A DNA stretch of 64,000 bases from Botryllus schlosseri (Eukaryota), in contig CM119371.1 in the NCBI GenBank assembly GCA_051294905.1, positions 21,268,001 to 21,332,000 on the forward strand, read 5' to 3'. Within the stretch, counting starts at the first letter, position 1. Each line of letters opens with the position of its first letter. Positions 1 through 58,409 of this stretch are shown piece by piece. The translations under genes and the position numbers were made by a program. The notes beneath the pieces are model-generated. The model saw nothing but the letters and a program-made list of their open reading frames with translations, had not been told where the DNA came from and made no database searches.

Positions 1-963
1 TGAAAGAAATACACTATTGGCAGATTGTGTTATTTTTGGCATATGCCAAAAATTAGTTATTTTTGGCATTTTCAAATTTTTATTTTTGGCAGTTTTGGCA
101 TCTGGCTCCCGAAATGCCAAAAATAACACGGCCTGTGTATAAGCCATCTTTCCTTCAACTTACAGCGCCGCAACGTCCTACAAGTTTCCCGATGTAAATA
201 TACGGGATCTGGAAGTACGGTAGAAACAGTATATTGCTTGGAGTTCCAATTGATCGAATTTCCTTATATCCAAATTATAATACGACACAACAGTAGCACG
301 AATAAGATATTGTCCCAATAAGATCGGTATAGATACAGTGGGGGAACGTCCGGTGGGCCAATTACTATTGATACAAACAGTATCTTAATCACAGCTATAT
401 CCAGAATCTTCCCTTAGACCAGACCAGGATGTTTCATAAAGCATACGTCATCTAGCGAATACAAGTATATGGCTCCTAAATTATTAAATCCCCTAAGATT
501 AACATGAAATGCCCACAGTAGCACGCCATTCATTCAGCAAAAATGGCTATTGTACATATGGTATGGAGATATCTTCAGTGGTGATCAAAGCAGTCCAGAT
601 AGCTACTCATGGAGAAGTAGAAGTAGCCACGCAAAAACCTACTCACATACGGGAAGAAGTAGTACTTTGAAAATTAACCCAAAACTACTTGAAATAGAAG
701 TAGAACTTACGAAATTTAAATCGACTCAAGTAGGTCAGTAAGTAGTGGTTGAAACAGTCGTACTTCGTTCGCTTAGTTAGACCATTATTTCCCTAACTTT
801 TTACATAACGCCCATCTGGACAGAAAATGAGGGAGAAATGCCCCATAAACCCCCTCATACTCCCGACAATTTTTGTTCATAGCATATTGCACAGTCACTA
901 CACTATCGAGTACACTTTTTGTGTTGATATAATTTATTGGCATCCCGATATACATATGTACGC

Positions 964-6362: not shown

Positions 6363-6569
6363 AGCATTTGTGGTGAATCCTTAGGGACAATCGTGACGTC
6401 GTACGAGAAACTATCGGCCGAGATTCTTCATAATTTTGACGAAGGAGTATCGCAATGGAAGGAGGCCAGTGAAGAAGGAAAACAACATGAAGAGAAATAC
6501 AGAAATAAGCTTGTGCTACATATGCAATATGCTATATCAGGGAAGGTTGAGGAATGGAAAATCCAGGAA
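6363..6569 (+). CDS. Long repeat exon A1 (69 aa: SICGESLGTIVTSYEKLSAEILHNF...ISGKVEEWKIQE)
   Basis: tatcgcag| ... GAA|gtatgg; matches A consensus G4,S6,L17,L22,F25,KVxEW. Confidence 0.85.
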
Positions 6570-9500: not shown

Positions 9501-12500
9501 TCGTTTTTATATACAAATTGGAATATTTATCAATAATATTATTTTCCTTCATATGCGCGTTGCACAACTTTGCTGTCATCAAATAGATTTCGACCTGGGT
9601 GCGCGAGTCATGAATCGCATTTTGAGATGATGACATATACACTATACAGTGAACGATTTTCTTAGGTATGTAAGTAATTTGAAAATATACAATTAAATAG
9701 TATATTCATATTGAAATGAACCCTAATATAATATGAAATGAAACCGAATATATTTAATTGTATATTGAAGTTCTGTACCTCAAAGAAGATCTTCAAGTAA
9801 TTTGAAAACAACAAAGTAGGATGATTGTCATGTTTCTGGCAAAACTTTTAAAGTATGGAAGAGCATGGAACAAAAATTTCTACGTCATACCATACCATAC
9901 TATGTCCAGCATACGAGGGCCGACTATTGCTAGAACCTTTCGATGGATGCCTCAATAATTACCCACAAGCTAAAATGGTTAAAGAAACAATTTTATTTCA
10001 AGATAAAATATTATTATTGTGTTCCAAATGTTTATGTTGAATTAATAATAGGTGCTTTATATGACATAAAACTGATTCAATTAATGCATCGTTATTTAAA
10101 TATTTTATATACGAACTTATTTATATGATAGGGGTTTTTGTACATAATATCCCCGAGTCTTGAACTAGATAAATGTTGCTGTAGTATGTTTTAAAAGTTA
10201 TCTCCAGTGTGTCCAAATAACAATTAGATTTAATTATAATTGGATGGGTGCTTTATGTGTAGCCATACAGCGGGAATATTAGATTTTAGTCAAAACAACC
10301 CCATGGGTTATTTCCAAACCAGAGAAAATATGATGAAATGCCAAAGCCGTATTCGGAATCAGTGTGATTCAGACCCCAAAAGCACTCTCACTTTGTCTGC
10401 CTAAAATAGGTGATGACCAGTATTATCATAATGCAGTAAACTTTTTCATTCATGTGAGTGCTAATCGCCACGATTCAATTACAGTAAGGTTTTGTTGATA
10501 TTTTTTCAGATAATATTCTGACCTTATTTCAATAATATTGTTGACAGGCATGCTTGACTACTAATTTATTATTACTTTTTCACTAGGAAAACAGACAGTT
10601 AAAATTGAGATTGAAATCTGAAGAGCTATCTGATCAGTACGTTAAAAGTGTGAAAGTAAGTATTGCTTCCCGTCATCATCATTTTGAAGATATATGTCCG
10701 GGTATATGAAAATTACAAAATCGAAATATCGAAACAACATTGCAAAGTTGTTGTTATCATCCTTTCTTAAACCCCGACTTATGTCTCGTTGTTCCATGGA
10801 TATCGCACCATTCTGGCAAAATATAAACTATCGTTGTACGAAAAATTGCTTTGGTCACCTAATTGTTTACTACAATACCAATATGTAACATGGTTTAGTC
10901 ATCTACTACGTTGGACCCCAATTCATGCACTGTGGAACTATGGCTACCTATCACATTGGTAGTAATTGTGACTCGGGAACTTGTGACTTGGTTACAACCC
11001 TGTCACGAACTCCTTGCACGAAACTTTGTAAATCACGTACCAATTATCACTGAACTTGGCGTCGGATACAAGCAATGAACATTCAACGAGAATGTCCCAC
11101 CTTGGCACGCACAACGTTGGTATGATCTAGATCCGGTTATATAATGCTTCTAATTGTTATACGGCCTTATTCCATTTTAACTGCCATAATCGTTACAATA
11201 GGATACAATTCTCTATTTCAGCTGGTAAGATTGCGCAGAGCAGAGGTGTCAAACATACGACCCGCCATACGATTTCATGCCACCATAATTATCCCTCAAG
11301 ACGTCAAATGTTGAGTATGTTCATAGAGCGCATTATAGCCATCTGACATTGGTCTTGCGGTTTCACTCTAGTCACCAGTCGGGAAAGGGGCCAGAAAGTA
11401 GGCTAGCTCTTCACAAAAGAGATAACGTCAGTAGTATAGTATCTCGGCCGTGATTCGCCATTGTGGCTTATGGTACGGCAACATGTCGTATGGAAAACAC
11501 GCGGTGGCAAGTCGTACTTTCAGACCCCCCTCTCGGTGGCATGTCGTAATGTGTTCTTATGGATGTGGTGACGAGTCCTACTTTCAGGTATAGGCTGCGG
11601 CGGCATATCGTATTGTAAACTCGCAGCGGCAAGTCGTACTTTCAGGTAGGCTATAAGTTGCGGTGACATGTCGTACTTCGTGTGGTGTTGAATATCAAGT
11701 ATATTGATCACGTGATTGATCCTTAGGTAATGTGTATATTCAAAATTATTATATATGACCGATTCGAGTAAATCCCAACGTTTACGGAGACATCAATATA
11801 TCCTTATTCTTATGGATGCGGCAGCATGACGTACTCTCAGGTATAGGATGCGGTGACATGTCGTACTTTCAGCAAAAAGGTGTGAATTAATTTGCAAAAT
11901 CTAGGAATCAGTCGCATGTTAATGTTTTTGTAATTAGTTTGCCAAAGAGCCGGCGTAAACGGGGATTCGGATATCAACAATAACCACGCTCACAAACTAA
12001 CACTTCAAATAGGTGTGAAATATATTACAAACCCCGCGATCGCTGACAAGATAATGGCTCGGACATAGCCATCTTTCGTGATTTGGTGTTACAGACATAT
12101 CGATCACTCTCAAGGTAATATTCTGGTAATCAGTTTGTCGCAGATCTGGATTTCCGTCGGTAAGATGTAATAAGTAACGAATAACAGAACCGCCACCGGC
12201 GTGACTTGAATACCAACAAATTGTCACCTAATTCCGTCCTAACCCGAATCCTTTTCAGGTTACCACATATTCAAATAGGTGTGAAATAATTGAAAATCCT
12301 ACGATCGCTCACAAGATAACACCTCAGTCATAACGGTCTCTCATGACTTGCTGTTGCATACCAATCACTCACAAGGTAATATTTTGGTAATTAGTTTGGC
12401 ACAGCGCCGTAGCCGACGGTGTTTCGAGAACCAACAATTTGACTTTTTCTGACGATTGCTATTTGTTTTCACACCTCTGGAACAGAGGTTGACTTTAGTT

Positions 12501-15500: not shown

Positions 15501-18500
15501 AATAACTGCTCAAGTTCACTTCGTAGTTCTCACAGCAGCACACAATGAACCACGTACGTACGACCCTAAATTGCCCTGATTGAATCTATTATGCATTTTA
15601 CTGCAAATCTAGCCTCTTTGTTGATCAATCGTTACAACAATATACGCAGAAGTTGACTTCTCAGCCTACACCGCCCGCATTTGCTCTCAGCGCCGCCCTA
15701 CCGCCCAATTTTCTAGCCAGCGCCCCCTCAATCGCCCATTTCATGGCCAGCGCCCTCTTGACGCTCGCGAACGCCCGAGGGGACGATGGTGTCCACTTTG
15801 GGTACCACTGCTCTAGGTAAAAATATAGTTCCAAAAGAAAAGGGTTTGTTACTCTAGGTCAGGGGTGTCAAACTCAAATTGCGTCACGGGCCGGATTGAA
15901 AACTTGAAATCACTCGCGGGCCGGACGAGTCAACTGATTCCAAAATGTTACTTAATGCTCTAGCCTTTCGCTTGACATCTTTGTTATCAAGCATATATTT
16001 ATATATCGATAAAAGTGTGGATCACGGATCACACCGGTATTTTTCTACCTATAGTAGCAACACCTTTATTCGCGAACAATGGAATTGGTGCAAGTACGGT
16101 GATTGAGCAGTTGAATACAGTTATGAACCGCTAAAACAGTCTACTAACGACAATATAAGTTGACACATTTCTATTCTCCCTCTGCTTCACACGTAATATG
16201 GCCTCATCCCTGTGTCTGCAGTGGGATGCATACACGAGATTTAACTGCAAACGCGGACATTGATATATTCGAGGCAGTGACCACAGGGGAATTGATAAAT
16301 TAACTTCGCGATTTCCGCATATCTTTTATGTCCAGGATACCGAATCTTTGAGCAGTGATTTGTTAGACGCACAACGTGGCCCCATTGGGGCCCTGGCTAT
16401 GATACTATCTGAAGTCACCAATTCAGTCAGCTCTGCTAGTCAATGTTATCACGTGTGCACTGAAAGAGGATGAAAATTTAATAACACTGTGATCAATTAC
16501 CAATGTTAAAGACAACATTCCCTCATGAATATGAATATGATTTTTTTTGTGGCATGCGCGATTCTTTTCAACACGTAACCCCTATAACAGTAAAAAGTTT
16601 CTTATTGGTTACGGAAGGCCCGCCGACAATCTGGGGCGGGAGGCGATGCCCCCAGAAGTTTGGTTTATTATCCTATGGCGATGGGGGAAACCATTGGGGG
16701 GACGGGTGCTGACGAAGTACTGTTTCGTCCCTGAACTAGAGCGAAACCACAATACCGCAGTAGGCTGGTTTTAATGTGGCCTATGAATATGCTCCACATT
16801 TTCTATATTGAGGGATTATTTAATGACGGTTAATCTCATCATATGTTACAAATGTGCTGGATAAAATAAGCATTTTCAATCTACTAATCCGTGACACCCC
16901 TGTGATATAGATAACACAATAATTTTTCAATTTATTCAGAGTGGCCCCGCGGGCCGTATGTTTGACACCCCTGTGGTAGTGAGTACGAATAATTTATCAA
17001 AGCTTTGAGATATAGACGCCATGCGAGAGGACAAACGCATCATGTTATCATAAAAGCTGCCACGTTTCAATTTGCACCTATAACGGACATTTGATGAACC
17101 TAGATTAATCTGATATTGCCGTTTTTGAGCAGTGTAGCGTAATCCCGGTTTCGGATACGTTCCTGACAAGTGCGCTATTGATGATGTTGTTGTCTAGTCG
17201 AATTTAACAGCGTTAGATTAACCTTCGAACAGTATATAATATAACACAAAGCCGTGACCGCGGTGGTGCGTACCACAGAGCTACTACTAACATGGATGAA
17301 GAGACATAAGATGTGACCAATTATAATATCCATCAAGGGGAAAACAGGACGTCAATGTTTACCATAACGACCTTCTTGGATAGCTAAAGACGCTACTCAA
17401 CCTACACCTGCTTGGTCGTATTCCTAGTGATATATGCCAAGTTTGGTACGTGCGTTGTTCTAACCAAGTCAAGACGTTCCGAGTCACACGTCCTTCCATC
17501 ATTTTAACGTTTGACCCATTCGACTCGAGTCATTTTCAATTTATCACTGAGTCATTCCGGGTAATTCTATGAATGGTAGCGCCCACGTCCTAGTCTGAAT
17601 GTTCAGTCAAGAATCATATACGTCTCATGTAGCCTATTGCCATGATTAATAGGCGAACAGAAGTAACAGCAGATCTTCCAACACATAGTAGAGTTTTAAA
17701 GTGATATGATAGTGAGGTTGATGTGTAGTTTAGGACTTCAAACGCAATTTTCGAGAGGATTTTAAGCTGTTAAATCGTCCACTGGTCTAGCAATATGTTA
17801 CTAACGGAATCAATGAATTTAATTAGCAGATTGAATATGTTTGCAATATTTCCAGAACTGCCCTACCGTGGACAAACTTGAATTAAAAACCAAGACCTTC
17901 ATTTCAAATATAATAAAAGAAAAATCTGAAACGAAATACGACAGGAAACATTTTGAGAAACTCATAGACACTAAATGTGCAGAAATGAAGCAACGTATCG
18001 AGGAAAGAGAAGAAGAAGAAAGAAAAGCAAAGGTGAAAAATATTTATTGTTACTTCTACGAAATGCAAATATTCACTCGTGTCAAGTCAAGCATATTCAA
18101 TATTTTAATATATGTCAGGTCACAGAACTTTATAAATTGACTCCAGTGACGTTGAGTACCGTCTAATTTTCCGGTGTCAATGAATATTAGGAATTCATAT
18201 ATTTTCTGACCACTCTGTTCAGGTTAATGTGAGGATGTAGGTAGATGCATATTGGTTAGCCTAGGCTATTTATAGGCAGTCGCAGTGACATAAAAAGCCC
18301 AATCACAGTGAACCGCGCTATAACTCGACAGCAGAAGAAACGATCTGGATATACCCCACCTGGACGTACTCGCCGCTGGAACAGGCGGATGACCCCTGAG
18401 GACTCGTCAACTCCTACCACACATGAACACCGAAGAGGAGATATTTCTCAACATGGCGCCTATGTAACACCGAACTGTGGCTCACAAAACAGCTTTGCTG

Positions 18501-21500
18501 CAACAGAAAAATAGAAGGGATAAATGGAGAGTAAAGATGAGTATAAAGAAATATTGAGATGTTCCCTTGGCTGTAAGGATCACCTGCTTCTTGACAAAAA
18601 CATTCCCGAAGGCACACTAGCCTCGGCATGTGGCATCGATTGACTACAGAAAAGCTTCTGATTCAGTCCATACCACATGGAGACTGAAAACAATGCGAAT
18701 GTACAAAACGAATGCGATCATCATCAGATTTATTGAGAACTCAATGAATAATTAGCATATAAAACTGTTGATAAAACATGACCATGGTAAAACAGAAACC
18801 TATAAAATTCAGATCCGCAATGGTATCTTTCAATGCGACTCATTCTTAATACTTTTACTCTGCCTCAGCTTAGCTCCACTCAGTGAGTTGCTAAGTAAAA
18901 ATGAACCAAAATAGGAAAGCAACAAACACTGAATTTCAAACAATTCATCACGTGTTGTTCATGAAGGATCTGAAAGTGTATGCGAAATCCGATGAAGACC
19001 TGAATATCCGAATGGCAATTTGTTCATGAGTTTTCGGAAGATATTGAAAACGAAATCTGGCTTGGATAAATGCTCAAAACTTACCATACGACGTGGAAGA
19101 GCCACTAGCGCTGACGACATGAATTTAAGCCATGAATTTCAAAATAGATGAAGCCATAACAGAATTGAATGCTGAAGATCACTATAAATATCCAGGGGTT
19201 TGTGAAAGAGACAACTATAAACATGCTGAAATGAAATAAAGTCTAAAAAGGGATAGGCCTACATTAGCAGGATCAAGTCATTCCTCAAAACAGAAGTAAA
19301 TTCCAAAAATAAAATCAATGCCATAAACAGTCTTGCAGTGCCTGTCTTGAGATACAGCTTTGGTGTGGTGAACTGGCGCAAAGATGAAGTCAAGAAATTG
19401 GACAAAATCTGATTAGCAAAGGCTGTACAACATCCCCCCTCCCTTCTCGAAAAGGTGGTCGAGGCCTACAAGAAATTGGAACAGAAATCATAGGGTTGTC
19501 ACAGTACATCCACAACAGCGATAACATTTAATGCAAACTAATTGCACAGGAAGACAAACAGCGCAAAACTAAATCTCTGAGCTATCGACACGACAAGTAC
19601 GCCAGAGAAGTAAACATGGAAACAACTAACCTGCACACTAATGAAAACACTGTTGTCAAACCCAAACAATAGCAAAAGCAGCACGACTACAATACAAAAG
19701 CGTAACACTCAAAATGAGAGAAACGATATGGGAGTCGATGCCTCTTCATGGACAGCACAAGAAGTTAACTTCACAGCCCCATGTAGACGAGCTTTCATGG
19801 ACCTGGCTATCAAACTCTAGCCTGAAACCGGCAAGCGAAGGATTCATTTTTGCAACACAAGACCAATCGCTTCCCACAAAATGCTATCGCAAAAGAATTC
19901 TGAAGCAAAACACGGGCGCCAAATGCAGAATGTGCCACAACAAAAATGAAACTGTAGTAGGCCTACACCTCATGTCCGGCTATATTGTGCCCTTGCATCC
20001 AGCGGATACACACCGATACACAATAGGATCGGACATTACATTCATCTTGAATTATGCAAACATTTTAACATCGTCACTTAGGCAAGAAAATCGTATGATA
20101 ACAGCACCAGTGACAGAAAACGAACGAGTCAGAATTCTGTGGGATGAACCAGTTATAACTAACCTCGAAATCAGGAACAACCGCCCGGGTATGATTATCA
20201 ATATAAAAAATAAAAAACAATGCTTATTCATTGAACTGGCCGTCCCAGCTGACCGAAACATACTACAAAAAGAACCAGAAAAACAATCGAAACACGCAGA
20301 GCTAATAATGGAATCTGAGAAAATGTAGCTATGCAAAATAAACATTGTACCGATCGTCATTGGCGCTACAGGGATCATAAGCAAAAGAGTCATGAGACAT
20401 ATCCAACAGATTCAGGTTAACGTTCGATTCGATATGATCCAGAAGATCACGTTATTGTGCACTTTGCATATTTTACGGAAGGCCTGGATTACACCACTGG
20501 ACTAGAATTACAGCATAATTTCTGTAATTTCGATTCTTCATTTTCAATCGTCTCCACCTCTGCTCTGCAGCCCTTGCCGATTCGTCATCTACTGCAATTC
20601 TATAATCTGACCTCTTTATACATTGCATAGGAATAGCAATTTGACTGTGTTACTGAAATTTTAAAAATTTACTTCAATCTCGCCATTTTCCTTTGGGGGC
20701 AGGTTGCTTCCCGGATTATGTGTGTATTAACCAATTTTACTGTGAATAAAGAAAATAATAATAAATATGATCAATGTTCATATCTTCGGAAAGCCTTGAA
20801 TGCACTACTCGACTAAAATTATACTTGCGAATCACAACATAATATCTGTCACTTCAATTCTTTATTTTCAATCATTTCTACCTCTGCCCTGTAACACTTG
20901 TCACTTCGTCATCTACTGCAATTTTTTAATCTGTCATCTTCATGTATTGCATAGGAACGAAATTTACCTATATTACTAACATTTTAGAAATTTACTCTAT
21001 TCTCGCCATTTTCCTTTGGCGGCAGGTTGCTTACCGTATTATTTGTGTATACAGTTTTACTGTGAAAAAAGAAAGTAATAACGTGTTGGCTACGTTACGG
21101 AGAATGTCGTTCAGGCTAGAAGTACAGGATGGGAGTATGATTCTGTGTAGGCGACGTTCATTGAATGAGAAGCCGAATGAAGGTCTATAAAGGCAGCGTC
21201 GTCACCATACGTGTAGGCGGCCGACTTATTCAATTTGTTTTTAAAAGGTATTAAGACAAGAAATGTACGAATATGAAGTTACCAAGTTACACGACCAATT
21301 CAAGATGAAGATTCGGGTGAGTAGGAATGTAAATTATGTTCATGTTTACGTTAGGGTCCATCAGTCCCCGGTATGGAAGACATGACCTAGGCGAGTGGCT
21401 CTCGATAGTGCTGCCCTGGGATGCCACGCGAAAATGAGGGAATGAGGTATTGAAGTAACCGTCGACATATTACTAAAGATAGGGATATCAACACTATAAG

Positions 21501-45500: not shown

Positions 45501-48500
45501 TATCTAGATATCCCTGGTCAAGCTCACAGCAGAGAGTCACTGAATATTCACAAACGGAAAGCTGGATATTTCGAGGAAACTTTTGTAACAGAGCAATAAA
45601 ACTTTTGAGATTGTCAAGGTGCATGCTTGTTTAGTGTTGATTTTTTATACTGTCAGCGCCATGCATAGAGTGGCTCGCAGTTGAAATGCAATAAATCTGA
45701 ACGAAAGATGTTATAATGAAGTGAAAATTGTAATATATGACAAAGGTTCACAGTGCAGAACCTAGTAAGGTTCTGTTGTGAACGCGAACCTCCAAATTTC
45801 CGAGGTTCACACACAGAACGCGAACGTGAACCTCACGTTCACACCATCCCTAGTTTTTATGATACAATACACATATCAAATCAAGATGGATCCCGTACTC
45901 TTGCTTGATTTTTCACATAAGACAGCGATGTATTCCTTGTATCAATTTCATCAGCTGGTTGAATAAGCATCATTCGCTGACTACCTACTTTTAGTGTACT
46001 CCGTTCTTGACGTTGTTTGATTGCCGTTCAATCTCACAGCAGAGAGTCACTAAATATTCACAAACAAAAAGCTGAATATTTCGAGCATATTTTTGTAGCG
46101 AATCAAGTAATTTTTTTGATATTGAGAAGGTGAATGTTTGTTTAGTACTGATATTTTCATGTTGCCAGTGCCATGCCTTGACTGATCCGAAGATGAAATG
46201 TGAGGAATTTCAATCAAAGATGTTACAAATTGTGATATATGAAAAAAAAAGTCTACAGGGCAGAGCCTACCAAATTTCGTTTGTGTACGCGAACCTCTAA
46301 ATATATGAGGCTCATTCAATGAAGGCAAGCATTCGATTTGTATTGCTGGAATTTTGGTGCTATCAGTTCTATGTGTTGTACACCAGAGCGAAAAGTTTGA
46401 TCGGAACAAGTTTAGGCCTCATAATTATTACGTTAGACAGGAGTGCAAATTCTCCAATAGTTGTACGGTGTTCTGAGAGAAATGTAATAGAGTCCGGGTT
46501 TCAGCACCCATTATAATTAAGATACAAATGTATATAATAGGAAACCCTTGGTTACTCCGAAGAGATGATGCGAAGATTGTACTCGGATCTATCGATAAAA
46601 ACGATTAAAAACTTCAAGGATCGTACAGAGTCGGCACTGAGTCTTGAATTGAGTCGCAATCGGCTGGCGAAAAGCATGGAGGAACTGCGAGAAAGTCTGG
46701 ATGTAGTTGCTAAGAATAAAATTTACGAATGGATGAGGGAACAGGTTGTAAATTATATTCAATTTACTGCTAAATCTCTTATTTTTGTGATTCCTAAAAT
46801 ATATTGATCGAAAGATGTGTGAGAGGTAGGGCTGTTCAAAAATAACTTTTTTTTCTGGATTTCAGCCATTCAGTCATTAAATTGTCAGGTTACCCTAATA
46901 AACGCTTCACACCAAATTTGGTTCTATTCTAACAAGTATAGGGCTCCGCAGAGCCAATTAAAATTTTTAATTTAAATAGGAAAATTAAAAAAAGATAAAT
47001 TTCAAACTATAAATATAATCCGACAAATATCAACGAAAAACTCCAATAACTCCGCTTCTACTAGTTGGAATTGAGCCAAATTTGTTCTGCATCGTCTCTG
47101 AAGACAGCTCAACATTTTCATGGGGTTATAATCAGTATATACATTTTGAGCGAGGTTCGAGTTTTCGTTAATTTGTAGATATGGAACTAAGCAGTCCATG
47201 GATGGCTAACCTTTGGCCGTGAAAGAAAAAAAAATAGCGGCCGTCGACACGTTTGTTTTAAGGTCATTTGCGCAACGCAGAGAAATATCAGTAATTATCA
47301 GTGTTTTTTACGTCAGTTACATCTGTGTAAGATTACGGACGGCTTCCGCGTTCTCGCGCTTCCTCCCTCAGTCTCTCCCATTTTCATGCGCCTGTAGCTT
47401 GATGTTTCCTGCCGACTTTATGGATTCGACTCACCATCACATTTTCAAGCACTGCTATGGCCGTGACGTCATCGATTAGGAGCCCGGCAGTGAAACCTCC
47501 GACACATAGAAACTTAGCAGAGTCGAGACTCCAACTAACAACCATTGCTGTCGTTACGATGTCGCTCAGCGCAATGAACCACTTGCTTCCGTCGACGTGT
47601 AATGCAATTATAGTATGTGATGGCGGCCGTCAACGTAAGAATTGAATTTACGAATTGACTCTCGAATTTTTGAGAGATTTTAAATAATCACCACGTCATT
47701 CAATGCTACCTTTTTCTATTTTAAATTAGTAGTGAAATTTGCAATCTGAGTATCATGAATTAACAGCATGTAACAATGTAATTAATATCAATTAGCCCAC
47801 CCGAAGATACATCATCATTATGACTGCATCTGATCACAGCACGCATCAAGTATAAATATGTGATAGTATGGGGAGCTACAGATACTAATGACGCAGGTCA
47901 TTCACGAATTCGATAAAATTTTTGCTAATCGCGCGACTATACAAATCCTAGTATGTATTCATAACAATTCAATGCGTGAAGTAAACCGATGTGAATTATT
48001 AGATGATTCCGCAGTTCATCGAAAAAAGATATGAAAAGTTAACATGAATATTTGGCACCCAGGGTACTATTTACCACTTTGCAGTGATCTGGCTGCCATA
48101 TTATCTAACAAAATCGTCGGCCACCCCTGCAGTAGGGCTGTTCAAAATTAACTTTTTTTTTCTGATTCAAGCCATTCACTGATTAAATTGTCAGGTTACC
48201 CTAAAAAACGCTGCACACCAAATTTGGTTCGATTCTAACAAGTATAGGACTCCGCAGATCCAATTAAAATTTTTAATTTATTATGTAAAATTTTAAAAAA
48301 AAATTTCCAAATTTTTCTGCCAACCCCATGAAATTGTTGAGCTGTCTTCAAAGACGTTGCAAAACAAATTTGAGTCAATTCCGACCAGTAGAAGCGGAAT
48401 TATGTGTGTTTTTCATTTATAAATCACGGATTATCCACCGATCAAGAATAATCCGAGGATTTTCATCGGAATTGACTCAAATTTGTTTTACTACGTCTTT

Positions 48501-51500
48501 GACGACAGCTCAACAATTTCATGGGGTTAGCAGAAAAATTTGGAAATTTTTTTTTTCAATTTTTCATGATAAATTAAAAATTTTAATTGGATCTGCGGAG
48601 AACCTTTACTGGTTGGAATCGAGTGAAATTTGGTGAGCAAGGTTTTCCACTGCAACCTGACGATTTAAGAGGTGACCGGCTTGAATCGAAAAAAAAAGTT
48701 ATTTTTGAACAGCCCTACCCAGCAGTCAATATGATTGTATGCCCAACGTTTCATGAACTTTGAATTAAGCTGTATGCAGGTACTTTGCCTTATCTATATA
48801 ATTTCAACATGCAAAAGGATATGCGGAGACGAATGATTGAAGGGAACTTGGAGAAACGGAATTACCGCCGCTTGAGGAACCAATGGCTCGAATTGATGAA
48901 TGAAAAAGCAAATACCAAAGAGCAGGTATAGACTGTTGCTATTCCGCGTGAGAAGGAATTCATTTTAGATTTGTACATTCGTTTACAGCAGTGGTTCTTA
49001 ACCTTGCCTCCAGCGCCCCCTAAGGGGCGCTGGCGATTTTGAAGGGGGCGCAAACGCTCAGGGGGCGATATGGGGGTGCTGGGCTCAGGGGGCGGTATGG
49101 GGGGGCGCTGGAGAAAAACGGCTTCGCAGTAGATGATGTGGTGGTAGGACATATCCTTAATGAGTATTCAGAGCAAATTAACACCGAAAACTTCGTTATA
49201 TATAGCCTACAAAAGACATATAGGTTTAATTGTCCATGGGCGCCTAAATGACTGGCACCGAATGTTCCTGTCTTGGCAATATGAACCCTAGAAGACGAAT
49301 TCCATCTGGCAGGGAAAAATTATATGCCAGTGAAGAAATACCAATTTGAAATCGGGTACGTCTTTTAGTTTAGTGCGATTGGGCGACAGGGATATCTAAA
49401 CCTAGATAATCCTGTTGGACGATATCCCTGTTGGGCGATTCTATATTTTGTGATATAGCAGACAGGAGGGCACGAAATAACATCATGCAACGAAGTCATA
49501 CCAACGGGTTCGCCCGCCCGAATATATTTAATTATTATTTACGGGCCCTACAGTTTCCAAGACACCTCACAATGTTCAATATAAGTTTTGATGAGTCTGC
49601 GCACACTCAACAACTCACTGCGCTGACCCTTGGACAACAGTGCGTAACGACTAATAAAGGTCATAACTTCGGATTTGTTGTGCGCAACGTAGATTTTCCG
49701 TGCGCATAGACCGTGTCAGCACTGCGCACGTGCGCAGCTTAGAGGGAACATTGCACTTCACTCAGCTCTACCGGTAAATCTGGTAGCGTGAGCAGAGAGG
49801 ACAAGAAATTGATAGCAATATATATGCAATTCCCGATCTTACTGACCGATTTTATCATGAATTATCGAACGTCTTCGCGCTTCGCAATGGCTCGCTAAAC
49901 AGTACAGCTGATTCCGTGGCAAAAGCGAGCAACGTGATGGGGGTGGGGGGGGGGCGGTCGGTTTATCACCATATGGGAGCCCAAGACCAAAGTTTTTTCG
50001 GGGGGCCTGACGAAGTGCCGTTTCGTTCCTGCCAACGGGTATACGCCCGAAGATGTATAATTATTATTGAGGGGTCCTAGCTTTTCACTCACACATCACT
50101 CAGCTCTACCTGTAAATCTGTTTACGTGAGCAGAGAGAGGATAAAAAATGATCTCAATATACATGCAATTCCCGATCATATTGACCAATTTGGTCATTAA
50201 TTAGTGAAATTTTCGCGCTTCGCGTTTCTAGGCGAGAACAGCTGCCTCAGTAAATGGGCACCCAATGGTGATGACTAGTATCAGCAAATAGCGGATAGCC
50301 GAAAGGGGGTCTGGGGGCGAAGCCCCCCGGGGCCCAAGACCAACTTTTTTGTTGGGGGGGGGCTGAAGAAGTGCTGTTACGGCCCTGGTAACGAATTAAG
50401 GGTACCTACGGGCACGGACGAATATGTTTAGTTATTAATTACGTGCCATTTATTTTCCCATTCAACAGCTCACACAGCGCTACTGGTAAATCTGATTACG
50501 TGGGCTCAGAGGATAAAAAGTTTATAGCGACACATATATATAATTACCACCTATTCATTCATGCATTATAGAAAATTTTGGTACCTAGGGCGACCAGGTC
50601 ACACAAACTTTGCTGACCATCGAAATCACGCTACGGGGTTCTTGTGGGCGAAGCCCTTAGAAGTTTGGATTATCACGCTATGGGTGCGCAAGGCAATCGT
50701 TTTGAGGGGGGTTGACGAAGTGCTGTTACGGCCCTCCCTCTTACTCATTGTCTTTGTTACATTACCTACAATATGAGGTTGGGGGGCGCTGGAGCACGAT
50801 AATTTTCGAAATGGGGCGCTGGAGGAAAAAAGGTTAAGAACCACTGGTTTACAGCGACTAAATTTGCTTTCAACATTACTGAAGCAGTTGGTATTTATCA
50901 TTTAGATTTCTTTGGAATTACCATGAGAAATTTCGAGGTTAAAATATCGATAAGAGTTTACTATGATCAGGATTGTTGTGCGTTTAGCAGAAATCTTCTC
51001 TCATTCGGTTGAATGTCTTTGATGTGTGATAGTTGTCGGATTCCAATACCATGGGCGCTCCTATTCTACATTTATGATGGATGAAACAATTTACTCTTAG
51101 CGTTAATTTGATTTAGGTGGTGTCGAATCATGTTCTTATAGACGCAGTACGATTATACAAAGAACTGACCGACGCGTGGCGTCGTCACTCATAAGATTTA
51201 TTGGCCATAATGCATATTTAAATGAAGGCAGTATCGTCCAGAATAACTTCACAACTGCAAAAAATGCATAATTAAAAATTGTCTTGAATGAAAAGGAACG
51301 ATTTTTACATTTTTAAAAGCATCCTAAAATGTACAATAAATATGCATGATTGTAAAACCCACATTTGCCAAATTCAGTGGGACCGTATGAAATATGAGGC
51401 ATCTACATCGTAGGTGTGGTTGCATTTAAAACAAACGGTGTTTTAAAACACTTCATTTGAAAATGTTTTAAACAGTGTTTCAAAAAAGGCCTTAAAAATT

Positions 51501-52857
51501 TTTTTGAGTCGTAAAATAATGTCATAATTGTGAAAACATGTTGTATGAGCCTACGAACGATTACCACCCGATATAGTCGACGTATATCGATATGGGATGG
51601 TTGAAACCCTTAAAGTAGTCGGTTCAACAGCAATAGTACAGATATTCCGTCGAAAGAACGATTTTTACCCTATATTTTCAGTTTTCAATGTCGATCCACT
51701 ATGACTTCACGATTAAATATTCGTGACGTCATGACTTTTCAAAAACCTAAAAAACAATATAAAAACATGTTTTAAATTAGGGCCTTGTTTTAAACATGTC
51801 TGTTTTAAATACAACCCTAATCGTAGGTTACCCTTGATCTTACTAAATTACTAATAATAAATTAGGTTGTTTTGCCACGATCCACTGGTTTTAGAATTGT
51901 CTACTTCAAGACGCGTAGCACTAGTTTTTTTTTTGCACAGGAAAAATGTCATCGAAAATTGGTGTCAACTTGTACTAATGCTAATCGCAGTGTTCTTTTG
52001 GTCAGAATTTCCAGAACAGGGGTTGGCGTACTACGGCCCGTGACATCACTTTGTGCGTCCCGCGAAGGCATCTAGAAATGTAACAAAAATGTTGAGATAT
52101 ATTTTGTTGTTGGCGCAATACTGTCCTCGAGGCCAACGTATTTTGAAACGTATCGGTTACTTGATACCCAAGAATATCGAAAAGGAAATGACTTAGATCG
52201 GATCTCAATTGTGATTTTTAATAAGAACTTAGACTTTCAGTGCTCTACATGAAGAAAAGGTTATTGATTGTATATTTGAGACTCGTTCCCTGTGCGCAGT
52301 TTGGTGTAATTCATTCATTACTTCGGTCTCAACTAATTCATAATGAAATTTCCAAATGACTAATAAGAGCGAAAAGTTTTGAGTACGTGAAAAGTACATG
52401 AAGAGGCAAGTTTGACACAGTACGCCTGTCACTGAAAGGTATTAAAAGGTGATATGCTGCTTATGACGCTGTCAGCATTGTGCATATTGAAGTTGACCAA
52501 ACGCTGAATCTGCATATATCCATAAGCTGATCGCTGCTCTGATAGTCAAATGTCCATCCTTAATAATCGGCACAACCTACTTTCATCCATAATTTTGACT
52601 AATTGATTTATGATAACCAGCTTATAAAATATCGCTAATGTTTCTAACGCATGTCCTATTATCAAATCCATGTTCAATTTTGTTTTTGTTTGTCTATAGC
52701 AGTGCTCTTCAACCCTTTTCGTCATGGTACACCGTTTTATCGTTTGCTCGAAACTCGTACACCCGTGACCACATAACACACTGATTCCTCATAGTAAGTG
52801 TACTCTAGGGGTGTTCAACCTTTATGCTATTCATACAGTTCGTCGGTTACATATATA

Positions 52858-52891
<34 letters not shown>

Positions 52892-55800: not shown

Positions 55801-58409
55801 GAGCGTGAGAAAAACCTCATTACAATGACCTGCTATTGTACAATATAACGCTGAGTCTTACCTTTGTCTAGGAAATAAAGTCACTAAGCTTGAATGATCA
55901 GGACATGCAAGCTATTTACGAAGATATCCGGCGTATCGTACTATGCGAGTATTGGTCGAATAATCTGCAGGGCATAGAAAAATTGAGCGTAAAGTATTTG
56001 AACATGAAGTTATTGGATGCATGGGAGCAGATTACAAAGATTACTGGACTTCAGTCGTATCTTCCATTATATCCGTTCCCTGATATAAATGACAATGCGG
56101 ATGAGGTCAGTTTATTTTCTGACTTCGACCATTTACATGTCTAATAGCTTAGTCAACAAATTGCTGGCAGCATATCAAAATAGGCAGTCATGTGAAGCGT
56201 CTTGGCTCTCACCAAAGCAGATTTCAAAAACGATGAATTGTATACCAATAAATTGGCGATGCAATCCTCGCGAACCATGTAAACTATTCAAGTGATCGAT
56301 CCTACCACTGGATTTCGGACTGCAATTTATCGCGATATATTCTAATGCAATTGTGCCATAATTCATTATAGAATGTCTCCTCGAAAGATTTGCGAATACC
56401 TCTTTCCTTTCCATTAGCAATCTCACGTTGCGTAAACGACGCGAGTAGATTTGTGACCCATTAAGTCAGTGGTTCCCAACCTTTTTCGTCTCGTGCCCCC
56501 CTTGGCCGATATTTAAGCTAACCCCCCCCCCCCCTATGAAAAAGTTGCCTGTTACTAAAAAAAATGTGGTTTTTAACGCGCAACTATTTCTTGACTGAGC
56601 AATTAATGGCCAAACATATTCAGATATGTCCGAACTATGGCGATGCGGACCGCACTAAACTTTGATAAAGTACAGTCAATTTTGACCGGTTTTTGACCGG
56701 TCGGGTAGCCACTGACGAAAAATAAATCACCAAGTCCGCTTGCTATGGACTTGAGTTGAATCGATGAATTTGGTACGGTATGTTTTTCACGTTAGCTCAT
56801 AATGTTGGCTTAAAAAGTTAAACAATTTCACTGGCGGCCTTGTGCTGAATTCAGCCTGACGTTATCCTGCTTACTACCAATTTGGTCAAGAGGCTGTTGC
56901 GGACCTAACGAAATCGACTCGTGAACCTCACTTTATCAGGGGGTGTAATAGCTACGGAAGGCATTCAAACATACACCTAGCTTGAAATCCGCCAAAGAAA
57001 CCTACAATTGCAAATAACTAACTTAACAGTTCTATAACATAAAAAGACTGTGAAATTTGCGTATCTTCCGATACAATGCCGAAGCATGATTTCCCCTTAA
57101 TAAATTAAGCCAGATCCCTCCCAAAAATTTCAAAATTCTAGGGAATTCCCCCTCCGGTTTGGAACCACTGCATTAGGTAGATGCGGTGACTTCCTTCAGA
57201 AATGAAAGTTGAATGAAGGTCTTTGTTTGCTAAATAATTACCAATATTTCTTAGTTAAGGATACCAAGATATATTGATCTGGTGAATGAGGTTGTCGAAA
57301 GTTTCCGTAAATGTTTGACTGAAGATCAGGCCAAAGGAAAATTTCAAGCTGGAGAGGTATGTCTCGGAGTTTTTCTCGAAGCATGTATTTTTCTTGGGGT
57401 TACTATCATTGACGTAATATAATACCACATAGAATTCACCTAAATATCACCTAAACGTTTCGGCAGATTGTGGAAACGGGCTGGTCGGATATAAGGCTCC
57501 ATAAACGATATATTAAGACTGGAGATTTCCAACTTTTTATGATCGCGGGAATTGTCACGTATAGCGGTATTTGCGATCAGAGTCACAATTTGTAATCTGA
57601 ATTTGAACCACTTTGTGCACAGTCATCCACAAAGCAATGTAGATAGCTTGAGCCGTATCCAACCTTTGAATCTTTCTGCAGCCGAGATACATTTGACGAC
57701 ACTAGCATGAAATTTCGAATGAGAGGGCATTCAATGCACTATTTGCAGGTGGTACACGAACTAGTTTTGTTTACAGAGTGTGGGTTGGTGTATTTTGCCT
57801 TTTATGATATTTAACGCTCTCTCATTCCAAATTCCATGCTGGTGACGTCATATTTTGTGATACGATTGTTGATATACAATGTTCTTCCCAATTCTCTACT
57901 AGTTGCTGACGATTGCCCCTGACGAGTGTCAGCCGAAAATATACGGGTTTATTTCAATATAAACATACTACTCAATTGTATGTAGAAATAGAAGTATAAG
58001 AAAAAATAGTTATTGATAGTTGCTATGAATTGATACTGTTGCGTCGCCAACAAAGTAGCAAATATTTCACGGTGCGCCGACGACAATCCAAGAGTAAATC
58101 CAGTCGCGATGTTGGTGTGCATTGCAAGTCTTTGATTCCGTCGTATTCTCGTACAATAGAGTGGTCATGTCAGAGTCACTGGGAAAAAAAAGTTGTTCCA
58201 TGATAGACAATGACAAATCGGTTGATGACTTTTCATTATATTTCCAGGAGAGTGAAGAGTTCTGCAGAGATTACGCGGATAAATATTTGACAATGCACTA
58301 TGACTTTCTAAATAAGATATTCCCGGATCTTACCAAAGAATATGATAACCTTGAAAGCTTGCTGCAAAAGTCTGAAAAAAGCATCGTCTTGATGCGTGAA
58401 AAAATTCAG
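6363..58409 (+). CDS. Partial multi-exon gene for a long alpha-helical tandem-repeat protein: join(6363..6569,10587..10655,17856..18032,21248..21316,23232..23435,26465..26530,29007..29213,30551..30622,32906..33115,43271..43333,46541..46744,48818..48925,[51117..51173?],55872..56105,57255..57356,58248..58409); 5' and 3' ends outside the window
   Basis: Each listed exon has AG before and GT after (the bracketed one has GC), a length divisible by 3, no stop and phase 0-0. Translations are charged/amphipathic helical and show mutual repeat homology. Manual prediction, no transcript data. Confidence 0.8.
7411..8388 (+). mobile_element. Internally deleted hAT (Buster/SPIN-like) element with C-terminal dimerisation-domain remnant
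   Basis: TIR CAGGGGTCACCAACC...GGTTGGTGACCCTTG; perfect TSD GCTTAATG; GST*RCESAFSDMNFIKNRHETRL at ~8045-8115; 5' part repeated at 13065-13300. Confidence 0.9.
8647..9904. mobile_element. Unclassified TIR element nested in the Chapaev3-like relic
   Basis: Imperfect inverted ends CAGGGCATGGTATGGTAT / ATACCATACCATACTATG, CCATA-rich subtermini; splits the host transposase motif. Confidence 0.55.
10587..10655 (+). CDS. Short repeat exon B1 (23 aa: ENRQLKLRLKSEELSDQYVKSVK)
   Basis: tttttcactag| ... AAA|gtaagt; aromatic at -6 and aliphatic at -2 as in other B exons. Confidence 0.8.
11440..11875. repeat. Degenerate ~30-bp minisatellite-like array
   Basis: Recurring GCGGTGACATGTCGTACTTTCAGGTATAGG variants. 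Confidence 0.6.
12004..12400. repeat. Diverged direct duplication (~265-bp period)
   Basis: TTCAAATAGGTGTGAAAT...CGATCGCT.ACAAGATAA...ATCACTC.CAAGGTAATATT.TGGTAAT occurs twice. Confidence 0.7.
14251..15810. mobile_element. Non-autonomous hAT element with a nested MITE at ~14689-15013
   Basis: TIR CAGTGTCTCCCAAA...TTTGGGTACCACTG; perfect TSD CTCTAGGT; inner GGGTTACCATA...TATGGTAACCC. Confidence 0.85.
15860..16973. mobile_element. Non-autonomous hAT element with the same TIR type as 964-1908
   Basis: CAGGGGTGTCAAAC...GTTTGACACCCCTG; right TSD not preserved. Confidence 0.8.
17856..18032 (+). CDS. Helical exon, shorter A-like variant (59 aa: NCPTVDKLELKTKTFISNII...EEREEEERKAK)
   Basis: atatttccag| ... 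AAG|gtgaaa; open, phase 0-0, coiled-coil-like composition. Confidence 0.75.
18290..20765 (+). mobile_element. Degenerate, apparently internally deleted R4/Dong-like non-LTR retrotransposon (RT + zinc knuckle + restriction-like endonuclease)
   Basis: RT remnants IDYRKASDSV, GIFQCDS, HVLFMKDLKVYA; CRMC..ET..H knuckle, NRPG(D)MII, FIELAVP..N...KE.EK..K in ORF 19714-20328; TAA-repeat tail ~20755. Confidence 0.85.
20845..21082 (+). mobile_element. Second diverged copy of the R4/Dong-like 3' UTR
   Basis: Aligns with 20520-20765 (TTCGTCATCTACTGCAATT, TCTCGCCATTTTCCTTTGG, TTTTACTGTGAA). Confidence 0.8.
21248..21316 (+). CDS. Short repeat exon B2 (23 aa: VLRQEMYEYEVTKLHDQFKMKIR)
   Basis: ttgtttttaaaag| ... 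CGG|gtgagt; F at -6, I at -2. Confidence 0.8.
22119..22447. mobile_element. MITE with ~45-bp imperfect TIRs; related pieces near 9690, 24315, 42700-42850, 57700-57977, 59670
   Basis: TTGAATAGAATATTCATATTGAAATGAACCTGAATACTTTC versus its inverted copy at 22400-22447. Confidence 0.7.
22703..23209. mobile_element. hAT-type MITE
   Basis: TIR TAGGGCTGGGCA...TGCCCAGCCCTA; TSD CCTATGTG/CCTATGAG; TCGAGT-rich subtermini. Confidence 0.9.
23232..23435 (+). CDS. Long repeat exon A2 (68 aa: MVKGTTKEMIKASSKKLSVEMLNNF...KAKVAEWVKRK)
   Basis: catttatag| ... AAG|gtgaaa; A consensus. An alternative donor TGG|gtaaag 12 nt earlier is possible. Confidence 0.85.
24787..25221. mobile_element. Young hAT (Blackjack-like) MITE
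   Basis: TIR TAGGCTTACCATA...TATGGTAAGCCTA; perfect TSD GTCATTGG; internal duplicated poly-T unit. Confidence 0.9.
26465..26530 (+). CDS. Short repeat exon B3 (22 aa: EEDATFQEILDKVFNEFEQQIK)
   Basis: catttcgacag| ... AAG|gtgcgt; F at -6, I at -2. Confidence 0.85.
27438..28711. mobile_element. Non-autonomous hAT element
   Basis: TIR CAGTGGTCCCCAAC...GTTGGAAACCACTG; perfect TSD CTCTAGCG; CGCCCC subterminal repeats. Confidence 0.9.
29007..29213 (+). CDS. Long repeat exon A3 (69 aa: SIDGPSLDELHGSCQRLAEKMLDRY...ISQKISEWSGKEQ)
   Basis: gtactttag| ... CAG|gtttaa; A consensus. Confidence 0.85.
30551..30622 (+). CDS. Short repeat exon B4 (24 aa: VKHERRRVENIFDEAYDEFTGELM)
   Basis: ccgctttaaag| ... 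ATG|gtgagt; F at -6, L at -2. Confidence 0.85.
31668..32531. mobile_element. ~200-bp MITE (TGCGCA-rich) interrupted by a foldback element; other copies 49570-49753 and 61601-61780
   Basis: TIR CAATGTTCCCTCTAA...TTAGAGGGAACATTG; perfect TSD GCCTCAAG. Confidence 0.9.
31703..32365. mobile_element. Foldback (near whole-length palindromic) hAT-like MITE
   Basis: TAGGGCTCTTCAAAAATGAC...GTCATTTTTGAAGAGCCCTA with arms pairing nearly to the centre (~32030); TSD CTGCGCAC/CTGCACAC. Confidence 0.9.
32906..33115 (+). CDS. Long repeat exon A4 (70 aa: TVEGETEEVVLELCKNLREKTL...RKKITEWRRVRAEM)
   Basis: gtattgcag| ... ATG|gtaaaa; A consensus. Confidence 0.85.
33304..34195. mobile_element. Non-autonomous hAT element, same family as 56467-57170
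   Basis: TAGTGGTTCCCAA...TTGGTAACCAATG; extensive similarity to the 56467 copy. Confidence 0.8.
34850..37186. mobile_element. Non-autonomous hAT element (2.3 kb) with a nested MITE
   Basis: TIR CAGTGCTTTTCAACCT...AGGTTGAAAAGCACTG; perfect TSD GACTATAT; CATTCGCAC subterminal repeats. Confidence 0.9.
36401..36794. mobile_element. hAT (Ac-like) MITE; second copy at 39270-39692
   Basis: TIR TAGAGCCCGACC...GGTCGGGCTCTA; perfect TSD ATCCATAC; TATCGG repeats. Confidence 0.9.
37268..38715 (-). mobile_element. Chapaev3-like (CMC) DNA transposon, internally deleted
   Basis: TIR CACTGGTCAACA...TGTTGACCAGTG, 3-bp TSD TTA; minus-strand remnant NMSIKVLFLFRTLDIFPDHL..QWERLYQDI...KERY. Confidence 0.85.
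38905..39009 (+). CDS. Candidate alternative terminal exon (phase 0: RSKKPSRGIRGKFENVISYVTQHLLILGGGMVLL*)
   Basis: atattttcag| acceptor, open to TGA 39007-39009, ATTAAA at 39086, outside recognised TEs; a second frame is also protein-like. Confidence 0.3.
   Translation, partial: RSKKPSRGIRGKFENVISYVTQHLLILGGGMVLL
40872..42025. mobile_element. Non-autonomous/composite hAT element
   Basis: CAGAGGTCTCAAAC...GTTTGAGACTCCTG; TSD ATATAGAC/ATGTACAC. Confidence 0.8.
43271..43333 (+). CDS. Short repeat exon B5 (21 aa: EMAIIRDEMEDAQDDFIDEIE)
   Basis: ttatttatag| ... GAG|gttcgt; F at -6, I at -2. Confidence 0.85.
44816..45852. mobile_element. hAT (Ac-like) non-autonomous element; inverted partial copy at ~43720-44206
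   Basis: TIR TAGGGATGGTGTGAAC...GTTCACACCATCCCTA; perfect TSD GTTTTTAT. Confidence 0.9.
46541..46744 (+). CDS. Long repeat exon A5 (68 aa: ETLGYSEEMMRRLYSDLSIKTIKNF...KNKIYEWMREQ)
   Basis: tatataatag| ... CAG|gttgta; A consensus. Confidence 0.85.
46827..47126. mobile_element. Truncated copy of the 48133 foldback family
   Basis: TAGGGCTGTTCAAAAATAAC start; similarity to 48133-48717 breaks off near 47126. Confidence 0.75.
48133..48717. mobile_element. Foldback hAT-like MITE
   Basis: TAGGGCTGTTCAAAA...TTTTGAACAGCCCTA with long arms; TSD CCCTGCAG/CCCAGCAG. Confidence 0.9.
48818..48925 (+). CDS. Helical linker exon (36 aa: DMRRRMIEGNLEKRNYRRLRNQWLELMNEKANTKEQ)
   Basis: catgcaaaag| ... CAG|gtatag; open, phase 0-0. 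Confidence 0.7.
48989..50846. mobile_element. Non-autonomous hAT element with internal triplicated ~340-370-bp unit and nested inserts
   Basis: TIR CAGTGGTTCTTAACC...GGTTAAGAACCACTG; perfect TSD GTTTACAG; CAGCTCTACC.GTAAATCTG unit at ~49760, 50100, 50475. Confidence 0.9.
51117..51194 (+). CDS. Candidate B-like exon VVSNHVLIDAVRLYKELTD; either GC donor after 51173 or read-through (AWRRHS*) to TAA 51192-51194
   Basis: ttgatttag| acceptor; Y at -6 places the expected donor at GAC|gcgtgg; AATAAA at 51335. Confidence 0.45.
   Translation: MVSNHVLIDAVRLYKELTDAWRRHS
52849..52890. repeat. (TA)n microsatellite
   Basis: Direct observation. Confidence 0.9.
52899..53661. mobile_element. Non-autonomous hAT element
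   Basis: CAGAGGTCTC...GAGACCTCTG; perfect TSD GCATAGGG. Confidence 0.9.
55872..56105 (+). CDS. A-like variant exon (78 aa: EIKSLSLNDQDMQAIYEDIRRIVLCEYW...FPDINDNADE)
   Basis: cctttgtctag| ... GAG|gtcagt; YEDIRRIVLCEY aligns with YEKLSAEILHNF of A1. Confidence 0.8.
56467..57170. mobile_element. Non-autonomous hAT element
   Basis: CAGTGGTTCCCAACC...GGTTTGGAACCACTG; TSD CATTAAGT/CATTAGGT. Confidence 0.9.
57255..57356 (+). CDS. Exon (34 aa: LRIPRYIDLVNEVVESFRKCLTEDQAKGKFQAGE)
   Basis: atttcttag| ... GAG|gtatgt; open, phase 0-0, begins with a B-like helix. Confidence 0.75.
58248..58409 (+). CDS. Exon (54 aa: ESEEFCRDYADKYLTMHYDFLNKIF...SIVLMREKIQ)
   Basis: ttatatttccag| ... CAG|gtatat; open, phase 0-0. 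Confidence 0.8.

Follow-up and report, generated by a model that had tools for sequence, protein, structure and literature searches.

Exon series and gene model

The stretch of DNA analysed here (the window, 64,000 nucleotides; G000:C1:21268001-21332000) belongs to a 495.5-Mb assembly of Botryllus schlosseri and consists of AT-rich animal DNA. From position 6363 to position 58409 it carries 15 predicted exons on the forward strand, every one of them stop-free, divisible by three in length, flanked by AG and GT and in phase 0-0 (Table 1). The exon at 6363, used as query in tblastn and phmmer searches, led to the other long exons, and splice-site and profile scans led to the short ones. The sequence features listed in an initial annotation of this DNA were all recovered: long exons B1, B3, B4, B5 and B6 share G4, S/T6, L17, L/I22 and a C-terminal K[VI]xEW, and the five short exons A1-A5 share F/Y at -6 and V/I/L at -2. 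A further 23-codon candidate in phase 0-0, at window positions 47882-47950 between B6 and C1, has a poor acceptor and was left out of the model; it bears a faint likeness to an extra short exon of a distant paralog. A conserved-looking stretch at window positions 143-214 was rejected as an exon, having no open frame with splice sites.

The introns do contain repeats, with 41% of intron bases matching elsewhere within the 264 kb compared. The intron between A0 and B1 contains a broken LINE-type element (window 2374-4197, minus strand), where three frames match reverse transcriptase and endonuclease (E = 7e-6, 8e-6 and 1e-3, below the Pfam cut-offs); it lies in the most GC-rich stretch of the window. 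The intron between B2 and A2 holds a 2.2-kb interspersed repeat (window about 18560-20770), nearly all of which is covered by 22 of the 68 genome matches listed, at 82-84% identity. Its 227-residue frame has no Pfam match, and the match to the near paralog ends where this repeat begins.

The gene extends beyond the window on both sides. Comparison of the upstream DNA with a paralog lying 190 kb downstream revealed six GTPase exons and one more short exon, A0, and two exons were placed downstream of the window. The resulting 24 exons join through canonical splice sites and without internal stop into a model of at least 1182 residues, a lower bound, as no convincing candidate for the start exon was found in the 14 kb upstream. 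The proposal of one large gene is supported, with the flanks of the window supplying the GTPase exons and the C terminus. The protein is laid out as a GTPase domain followed by six units of one short and one long exon and then by about 320 further residues, with an amphipathic helix at the C terminus. Phase 0 is found in 22 of the 23 introns of the model, the GTPase introns included.

Table 1. Exons of the 24-exon gene model, with positions given either within the window or on the contig (C1)
Feature	Position	Strand	Codons	Remarks
G1 exon	C1:21237117-21237317	+		GTPase; upstream of window
G2 exon	C1:21242115-21242255	+		GTPase; upstream
G3 exon	C1:21246137-21246292	+		GTPase; upstream
GTPase exon	C1:21251356-21251406	+		Upstream
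RD-motif exon	C1:21251472-21251685	+		Upstream; followed by the sole phase-1 intron of the gene
End-of-GTPase-domain exon	C1:21253129-21253328	+		Upstream
Short exon A0, unit 1	C1:21264128-21264196	+	23	Upstream; directly before B1
Long exon B1, unit 1	window 6363-6569	+	69	Putative helices 2 and 3 of unit 1
Short exon A1, unit 2	window 10587-10655	+	23
Long exon B2, unit 2	window 17856-18032	+	59
Short exon A2, unit 3	window 21248-21316	+	23
Long exon B3, unit 3	window 23232-23435	+	68
Short exon A3, unit 4	window 26465-26530	+	22
Long exon B4, unit 4	window 29007-29213	+	69
Short exon A4, unit 5	window 30551-30622	+	24
Long exon B5, unit 5	window 32906-33115	+	70
Short exon A5, unit 6	window 43271-43333	+	21
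Long exon B6, unit 6	window 46541-46744	+	68
C-terminal region exon C1	window 48818-48925	+	36
C-terminal region exon C2	window 55872-56105	+	78	Found in 5 of 5 cluster genes
C-terminal region exon C3	window 57255-57356	+	34
C-terminal region exon C4	window 58248-58409	+	54
Exon C5	C1:21341512-21341583	+		Downstream of window
Last exon	C1:21342901-21343191	+		Downstream; amphipathic helix and stop

An atlastin-type GTPase domain

A scan of the genome with the Pfam profile PF02263 gave 42 matches among 50 scored candidates, on eight contigs. One of them, at C1:21246131, is on the forward strand and precedes the window by 22 kb; four neighbouring paralogs likewise have one match upstream each. 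Clusters of matching exons occur on C1, C4, C6 and C10, and further matches on C2, C7, C11 and C13. Exon by exon, G3 reaches 31.2 bits (cut-off 21.1), G1 falls just under the cut-off at 20.5, and a third GTPase exon gives no match. When the P-loop exon was compared with PDB chains, the best 14 of the 21 matches were atlastin-1 (E = 7e-5), atlastin-3, LOC432253 (which we take to be RNF112) and the atlastin entry 3x1d, the other seven being ABC transporters; no GBP or Sey1 chain was among the 21. A word-based protein search with the same exon found no match, which is weak evidence of absence. A profile of exon G3 built from three sequences retrieved 217 proteins out of 826 candidates; PF02263 is present in all of the 120 listed, most of the named ones being atlastins.

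The GTPase motifs are all intact and align with those of the genome's own atlastin: GPARQGKS (G1, with its arginine), VTTGI (G2), DTQG (G3) and LLRD (G4, presumably of the RD type). Over the GTPase part, 85 of 286 residues are identical to the canonical atlastin on contig C11 (one 19-codon atlastin exon lies outside the alignment). The role of the G1 arginine is known from relatives, according to the available text of one report (PMC12012479). No transmembrane segment was detected in the model: hydropathy over 19 residues peaks at 1.12, compared with 2.22 in the atlastin anchor exon. The hydrophobic moment is largest at residue 1168 of 1182, which marks the amphipathic helix at the C terminus.

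The initial annotation did not recognise the repeat as a named family. The profile matches, the PDB matches, the G3 profile and the alignment to the genome's atlastin identify the gene as an atlastin-like GTPase. By similarity, the GTPase domain appears nearer to atlastins than to GBPs; the tree contains no GBP. In that tree (31 rows, without a GBP, RNF112 or Sey1 outgroup), the window gene and its paralog sit on a very long branch, flagged for attraction, and were not placed by the tree; the C11 atlastin, which has its anchor, sits on a short branch. The window gene is no plain ortholog of a described family, the canonical atlastin being a separate gene on C11. Judged by sequence, it is a diverged atlastin paralog that lacks a membrane anchor, and as such a genuine variant within an already described family. 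An open frame of more than 400 codons (L026:8782-9999) that follows the canonical atlastin gene looks to us like a sodium:solute symporter.

Repeat units of one short and one long exon

All six short exons, A0 and the five of the window, rank first among 6252 stop-free, GT-ended candidates when each is scored against the other five. In a leave-one-out HMM, five of the six short+long units (units 1 and 3-6) score 33-59 bits, as high as none of 500 shuffles, so that the repeat stands up against shuffled controls in these five. Unit 2, which contains B2, scores 0.9 bits, a value reached by 250 of 500 shuffles. Counting B2 as a long exon, as was initially done, is right as to its position in the alternation, but B2 has none of the five long-exon features and its unit is not significant. 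That B2 is a copy of the other long exons is therefore not demonstrable: unit 2 may be diverged or distinct, and is not shown to be the same repeat. B2 is conserved in paralogs (42% to the distant one).

By these comparisons, the repeat is a short+long unit present six times, as five mutually homologous, recognisable copies and one that appears diverged or distinct. The units measure 82-94 residues and are only about 15-30% identical to each other. The suggestion of growth by tandem duplication of a long and short exon pair survives as far as the duplication of an exon pair goes, a paralog having one such long exon against five here. The pair itself is ordered differently, since the unit begins with the short exon: A0 precedes the exon at 6363 and is the first exon to follow those of the GTPase domain.

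With the long-exon profile, a word-based protein search found no match, again weak evidence of absence. Among 1.84 billion representatives, this profile obtained 23 matches, and the five examined were unrelated proteins with a repeat of ~22 residues, which we rejected as spurious. Of 11 matches to PDB sequences, none has E < 0.6.

Relationship of the units to the atlastin three-helix bundle

In the canonical atlastin gene on C11, helix 1 of the three-helix bundle is encoded by a 24-codon exon in phase 0-0, followed by an exon that holds the rest of the bundle and the anchor. A0 (23 codons) and B1 occupy the same place in the window gene. Seven consecutive introns, including those at both ends of the short exon, agree with atlastin in place and phase in an alignment read by eye; atlastin has one extra intron in its GTPase part.

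Similarity to the bundle itself is uneven among the units. A bundle HMM built from 33 atlastins gave 11.1 bits for unit 1, a score that none of 500 shuffles reached, and 11.5 bits for unit 4, reached by 1 of 500; units 2, 3, 5 and 6 were not significant. A broader HMM, comprising the 33 atlastins, diverged copies from six database proteins and two units of a paralog on contig C10, gave 19.9 bits for unit 1, 16.4 for unit 4 and 7.0 for unit 6 (0, 0 and 2 of 500 shuffles). Units 2, 3 and 5 were significant with neither HMM, their scores being reached by 31-269 of 500 shuffles, and unit 3 reversed outscored unit 3 forward. Pairwise comparison of the units with the genome's own atlastin bundle gave Z values of 0.1-1.7, none significant; profile-profile comparison with the bundle reached a probability of only 17-33%, and hhalign against the single atlastin exon 0.9%, which is not significant. 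In the other direction, the module HMM finds its best match inside the bundle in 74 of 83 atlastins; this position is partly a matter of composition, because 2 of 30 shuffled or reversed profiles reach the same share. The GBP_C profile (PF02841) matches neither the window exons nor anything else in the whole genome, and the exon-wise test is insensitive, since the profile misses the canonical atlastin too. Modelled alone with AlphaFold, exon B4 forms two helices (residues 7-31 and 36-67), the second reaching the end of the exon. Foldseek found no PDB match for this model; Atlas leads for B4 were Sey1_3HB (0.93) and GBP_C (0.83), at low recognition, with nothing for B1. We also scored the six exons of the C-terminal region in pairs, as three further candidate bundles: C1+C2 obtained 9.3 bits (0 of 500 shuffles) and its paralog only 0.3 bits, and the other two C-terminal pairs of the window gene had no bundle score.

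The paralog on C10 (C10:10487501-10497500), a compact atlastin-like gene, has a clear atlastin bundle (Z 10.2, 32 bits), whose long exon ends in a phase-0 intron. A second short+long unit follows (14.3 bits), with a second long exon that appears to meet a stop and in which no anchor was seen. As predicted from its sequence, this gene shows an intermediate state, the step that would create a duplicable cassette. Given where the units stand, the introns held in common with atlastin, the significant scores of two to three units and the homology among five, we judge it very likely that the repeat units are atlastin three-helix bundles. It is the homology shared by units 1 and 3-6 that extends the assignment to all five.

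Paralogs and selection

Five tandem genes at C1:20.56-21.52 Mb are recognisable by their GTPase exons and their C2 exon, which keep the same order in each. The 42 PF02263 exon matches on eight contigs, with their clusters, suggest that the atlastin-like family of this genome is large; GBP_C finds nothing. A long-exon HMM run on 9000 stop-free segments from 264 kb recovered the five training exons and one exon of the distant paralog (E = 2e-14), and nothing else with E < 0.7. Within 100 kb, the distant paralog has one tryptophan-type long exon, and its order is A0, B1, A1, B2, one more short exon and then C1-C6; exon C3 resembles its counterpart only weakly (6 of 34 residues identical) at equal length and phase. 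The near paralog keeps B1, B3, B4, B5 and B6 in order and free of stops, at 93, 87, 90, 86 and 85% identity, respectively, and also has DNA like the B2 region. The two remaining genes of the cluster have at least one weak long-exon match each.

The earlier claim of selection is borne out, and the selection is purifying: dN/dS against the distant paralog is 0.44 over 580 codons in 12 exons, which do not include A2-B6, and 0.51 after the GTPase domain. Exon order and phases have been kept at a dS of about 1. Between B1 and its counterpart in the near paralog there are five synonymous and five replacement changes, a ratio of 0.24.

Domains of other kinds occur nearby. Inside the 35-kb intron that separates the C1-like exon of the distant paralog from its C2-like exon, and on the same strand, lie a Death-domain exon (L020:1744-1980, at C1:21481744; E = 6e-11) and an LRR-looking block, possibly a nested immune-type gene. 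On the other side, 53 kb upstream of the window, a Bcl-2-like exon (L004:6402-6680; E = 0.002, below cut-off) adjoins a block with LRR-looking segments in the following 8 kb, similar to a block at C1:21.486-21.494 Mb.

Proposed origin, working and role

Taken as a whole, the exons are in our judgement likely to encode the stalk of a diverged atlastin paralog that would tether or coat membranes, most likely in defence. The ancestor would have been a canonical atlastin with helix 1 of its bundle on a 24-codon exon in phase 0-0. The bundle would have been cut off from the membrane anchor by an intron in phase 0 at its end, giving a two-exon cassette, and tandem duplication of the cassette would have produced five recognisable copies and one diverged or distinct unit. 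In the protein, the heads would dimerise on binding GTP, as they do in atlastin, RNF112 and Sey1; for relatives, the available parts of two reports establish that the heads dimerise in a GTP-dependent manner and that the first bundle moves (PMC4576867, PMC12012479). The units would stack into a rod of at least five or six bundles, and the junction from a long to the next short exon would fall within one helix, which would explain why the initial annotation saw a long+short unit. The amphipathic tail would bind the membrane from the cytosol in place of the lost anchor, allowing membranes to be tethered or coated over a distance set by the number of bundles. The most likely setting would be cell-autonomous defence like that of GBPs and BmAtlastin-n. 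This role, argued by analogy, is plausible rather than probable; we favour it over housekeeping because of the tandem cluster, the very long branches, the relaxed evolution of the stalk and the precedent of BmAtlastin-n.

The identity of the gene and of its stalk can be read in other ways. The exons might be relics of a pseudogene, or might belong to two genes, one for a GTPase and one for a helical repeat, and the missing start exon and the lack of any database protein matching the long exons would fit either version. Against them, 24 exons are free of stops and have canonical splice sites, their order and phases are held in a paralog at dS about 1 with dN/dS 0.44, and the cluster shows the GTPase exon accompanied by C2, in unchanged order, five times over; we therefore regard both versions as very improbable. 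If the gene is accepted as atlastin-like, its middle domain may still have been replaced by an unrelated helical repeat or coiled coil. Direct similarity to the bundle is weak or absent in half of the units, the K[VI]xEW end is absent from the atlastin bundle alignment, and neither Pfam nor Foldseek gave a match. However, the repeat stands right after the GTPase linker with the exon length and intron phases of atlastin, units 1 and 4 score significantly, the C10 gene offers an intermediate, and some database atlastins have clear bundle repeats, all of which makes a replacement unlikely.

Other readings concern what the stalk does. The same gene and stalk could serve housekeeping or developmental membrane shaping, as a peripheral tether or fusogen at the ER or at endosomes comparable to Sey1/RHD3 or RNF112, in which case the length of the stalk would determine how far it reaches; this differs from the explanation preferred here in function only. 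In its favour, the protein retains its catalytic motifs and ends in an amphipathic helix, and, in the available texts, Sey1p fusion depends on stalk length (PMC4576867) and RNF112, when anchored, can remodel the ER (PMC12012479). But the protein has no transmembrane hairpin, the genome retains a canonical atlastin, and a five-gene tandem cluster, very long branches and a stalk dN/dS near 0.5 look more like a fast-evolving defence family, so that we hold such a role to be possible though somewhat doubtful. The initial annotation, for its part, suggested that the modules are symmetric to permit in-frame skipping, yielding isoforms of differing length. The module exons are indeed all in phase 0-0, and skipping one short exon with its long partner would leave the reading frame, and probably the fold as well, undisturbed. 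Yet the symmetry needs no explanation by splicing, because phase 0 is gene-wide, in 22 of 23 introns and in the GTPase part too, and the intron between short and long exon is already found in canonical atlastin. Moreover, units that are about 15-30% identical, with each long exon kept separately in the near paralog, look like fixed, specialised units. Phase 0, as far as these gene structures tell, is largely inherited and no argument for length tuning, and skipping as the purpose of the modules seems improbable to us.

If the stalk is what we propose, the locus bears on several questions. According to the available text of a review, whether atlastins took over GBP-like defence in invertebrates is an open question (PMC9005921), and a cluster of five genes that differ in stalk copy number offers a direct test of this idea, and of the way in which dynamin-like GTPases are tuned by the length of their stalk. 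It also illustrates neatly how a domain can grow when a pair of exons is duplicated, the ancestral and the intermediate gene structure being present in one genome. Neither Pfam nor the protein searches carried out detected the stalk, and genes of this sort are therefore easy to overlook. One could go further and imagine that invertebrates have repeatedly made soluble, GBP-like defence GTPases from the ER fusogen atlastin, by means of a freed two-exon bundle cassette of varied copy number, and that paralogs with one or five tryptophan-type units, perhaps along with splice isoforms, serve as molecular rulers, coating or bridging the membranes of pathogens over distances that differ from one to the next. 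We offer this as a speculation that is rather unlikely to hold in full.

Comparison with known systems

Atlastins that are long and have no transmembrane segment (BmAtlastin-n) and stalks of stacked bundles (Sey1, GBP1) are already known. A literature search that reached few subscription papers, judged by titles and abstract openings and by passages of four texts (PMC9005921, PMC12012479, PMC4576867, bioRxiv 2021.05.13.443009), brought up no paper about tandem arrays of bundles in atlastin-like proteins or about the exon cassette described here. With canonical atlastins (human ATL1-3, the Drosophila protein and the C11 copy), the window protein shares the GTPase motifs, seven introns and a short+long unit after the GTPase domain. 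Canonical atlastins have one bundle, two transmembrane segments and a short tail, as the accessible part of one source describes them (PMC4926086), whereas the window protein has six units and about 320 residues besides, lacks a transmembrane segment and is only about 30% identical in the GTPase domain.

The closest studied case is BmAtlastin-n of Bombyx mori, described in the available text as a cytoplasmic, antiviral protein of 770 residues without a transmembrane segment (PMC4926086). Like the window protein, it has an atlastin-type head and a long helical middle, and that text reports no transmembrane segment (PMC4926086). The two differ in length, 770 versus at least 1182 residues, and cytoplasmic location and anti-pathogen activity are shown for BmAtlastin-n only, in the same portion of the source (PMC4926086). 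Several bundle-like copies were found in 4 of the 120 proteins listed (P0099, P0139, P0140 and P0141), and Pfam marks GBP_C in one of the four. The moth-type proteins P0139 and P0141 have 4-5 detectable bundle copies and, unlike the window protein, keep a hydrophobic stretch (2.05-2.2). Going by its length and taxon, P0139 may be the ortholog of BmAtlastin-n. In the GTPase tree the moth forms sit among insect atlastins, apart from the window gene, with at least two label changes forced and long branches flagged, and their likeness to the window gene is probably parallel. P0140, a database entry of 966 residues named 'atlastin-2' from Phallusia mammillata and known here only as such, resembles the window protein in its atlastin head, its four or more bundle-like copies and its lack of a transmembrane segment. 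It differs in having no K[VI]xEW-type similarity and in standing outside the 25 best module-HMM matches, and long branches in the tree obscure its kinship to the window gene.

RNF112 (neurolastin) has an atlastin-like head, a three-helix middle domain and a C-terminal amphipathic helix, as would the window protein; unlike the latter, it has a RING domain, one bundle and a predicted transmembrane segment in the available text (PMC12012479), neither RING domain nor transmembrane segment being seen in the window gene, from whose model the first exon is missing. Sey1/RHD3, with four stacked bundles (PMC4576867), and GBP1, with two bundles that share a helix (PMC9005921), are in the accessible parts of their descriptions likewise dynamin-like GTPase heads on a stalk of stacked bundles. 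In the Sey1p stalk, the last helix of each of the four bundles runs into the first of the next, and shortening the stalk blocks fusion (PMC4576867). The model of P0139, an analogue and a different protein from that of the window, alternates long and short helices with a period of about 83 residues and thereby resembles what is accessible of this description (PMC4576867). The window protein differs from Sey1 and GBP1 in that its head is atlastin-type by sequence and its units are recognisable tandem duplicates of an exon pair, and from Sey1 also in that Sey1 has transmembrane segments.
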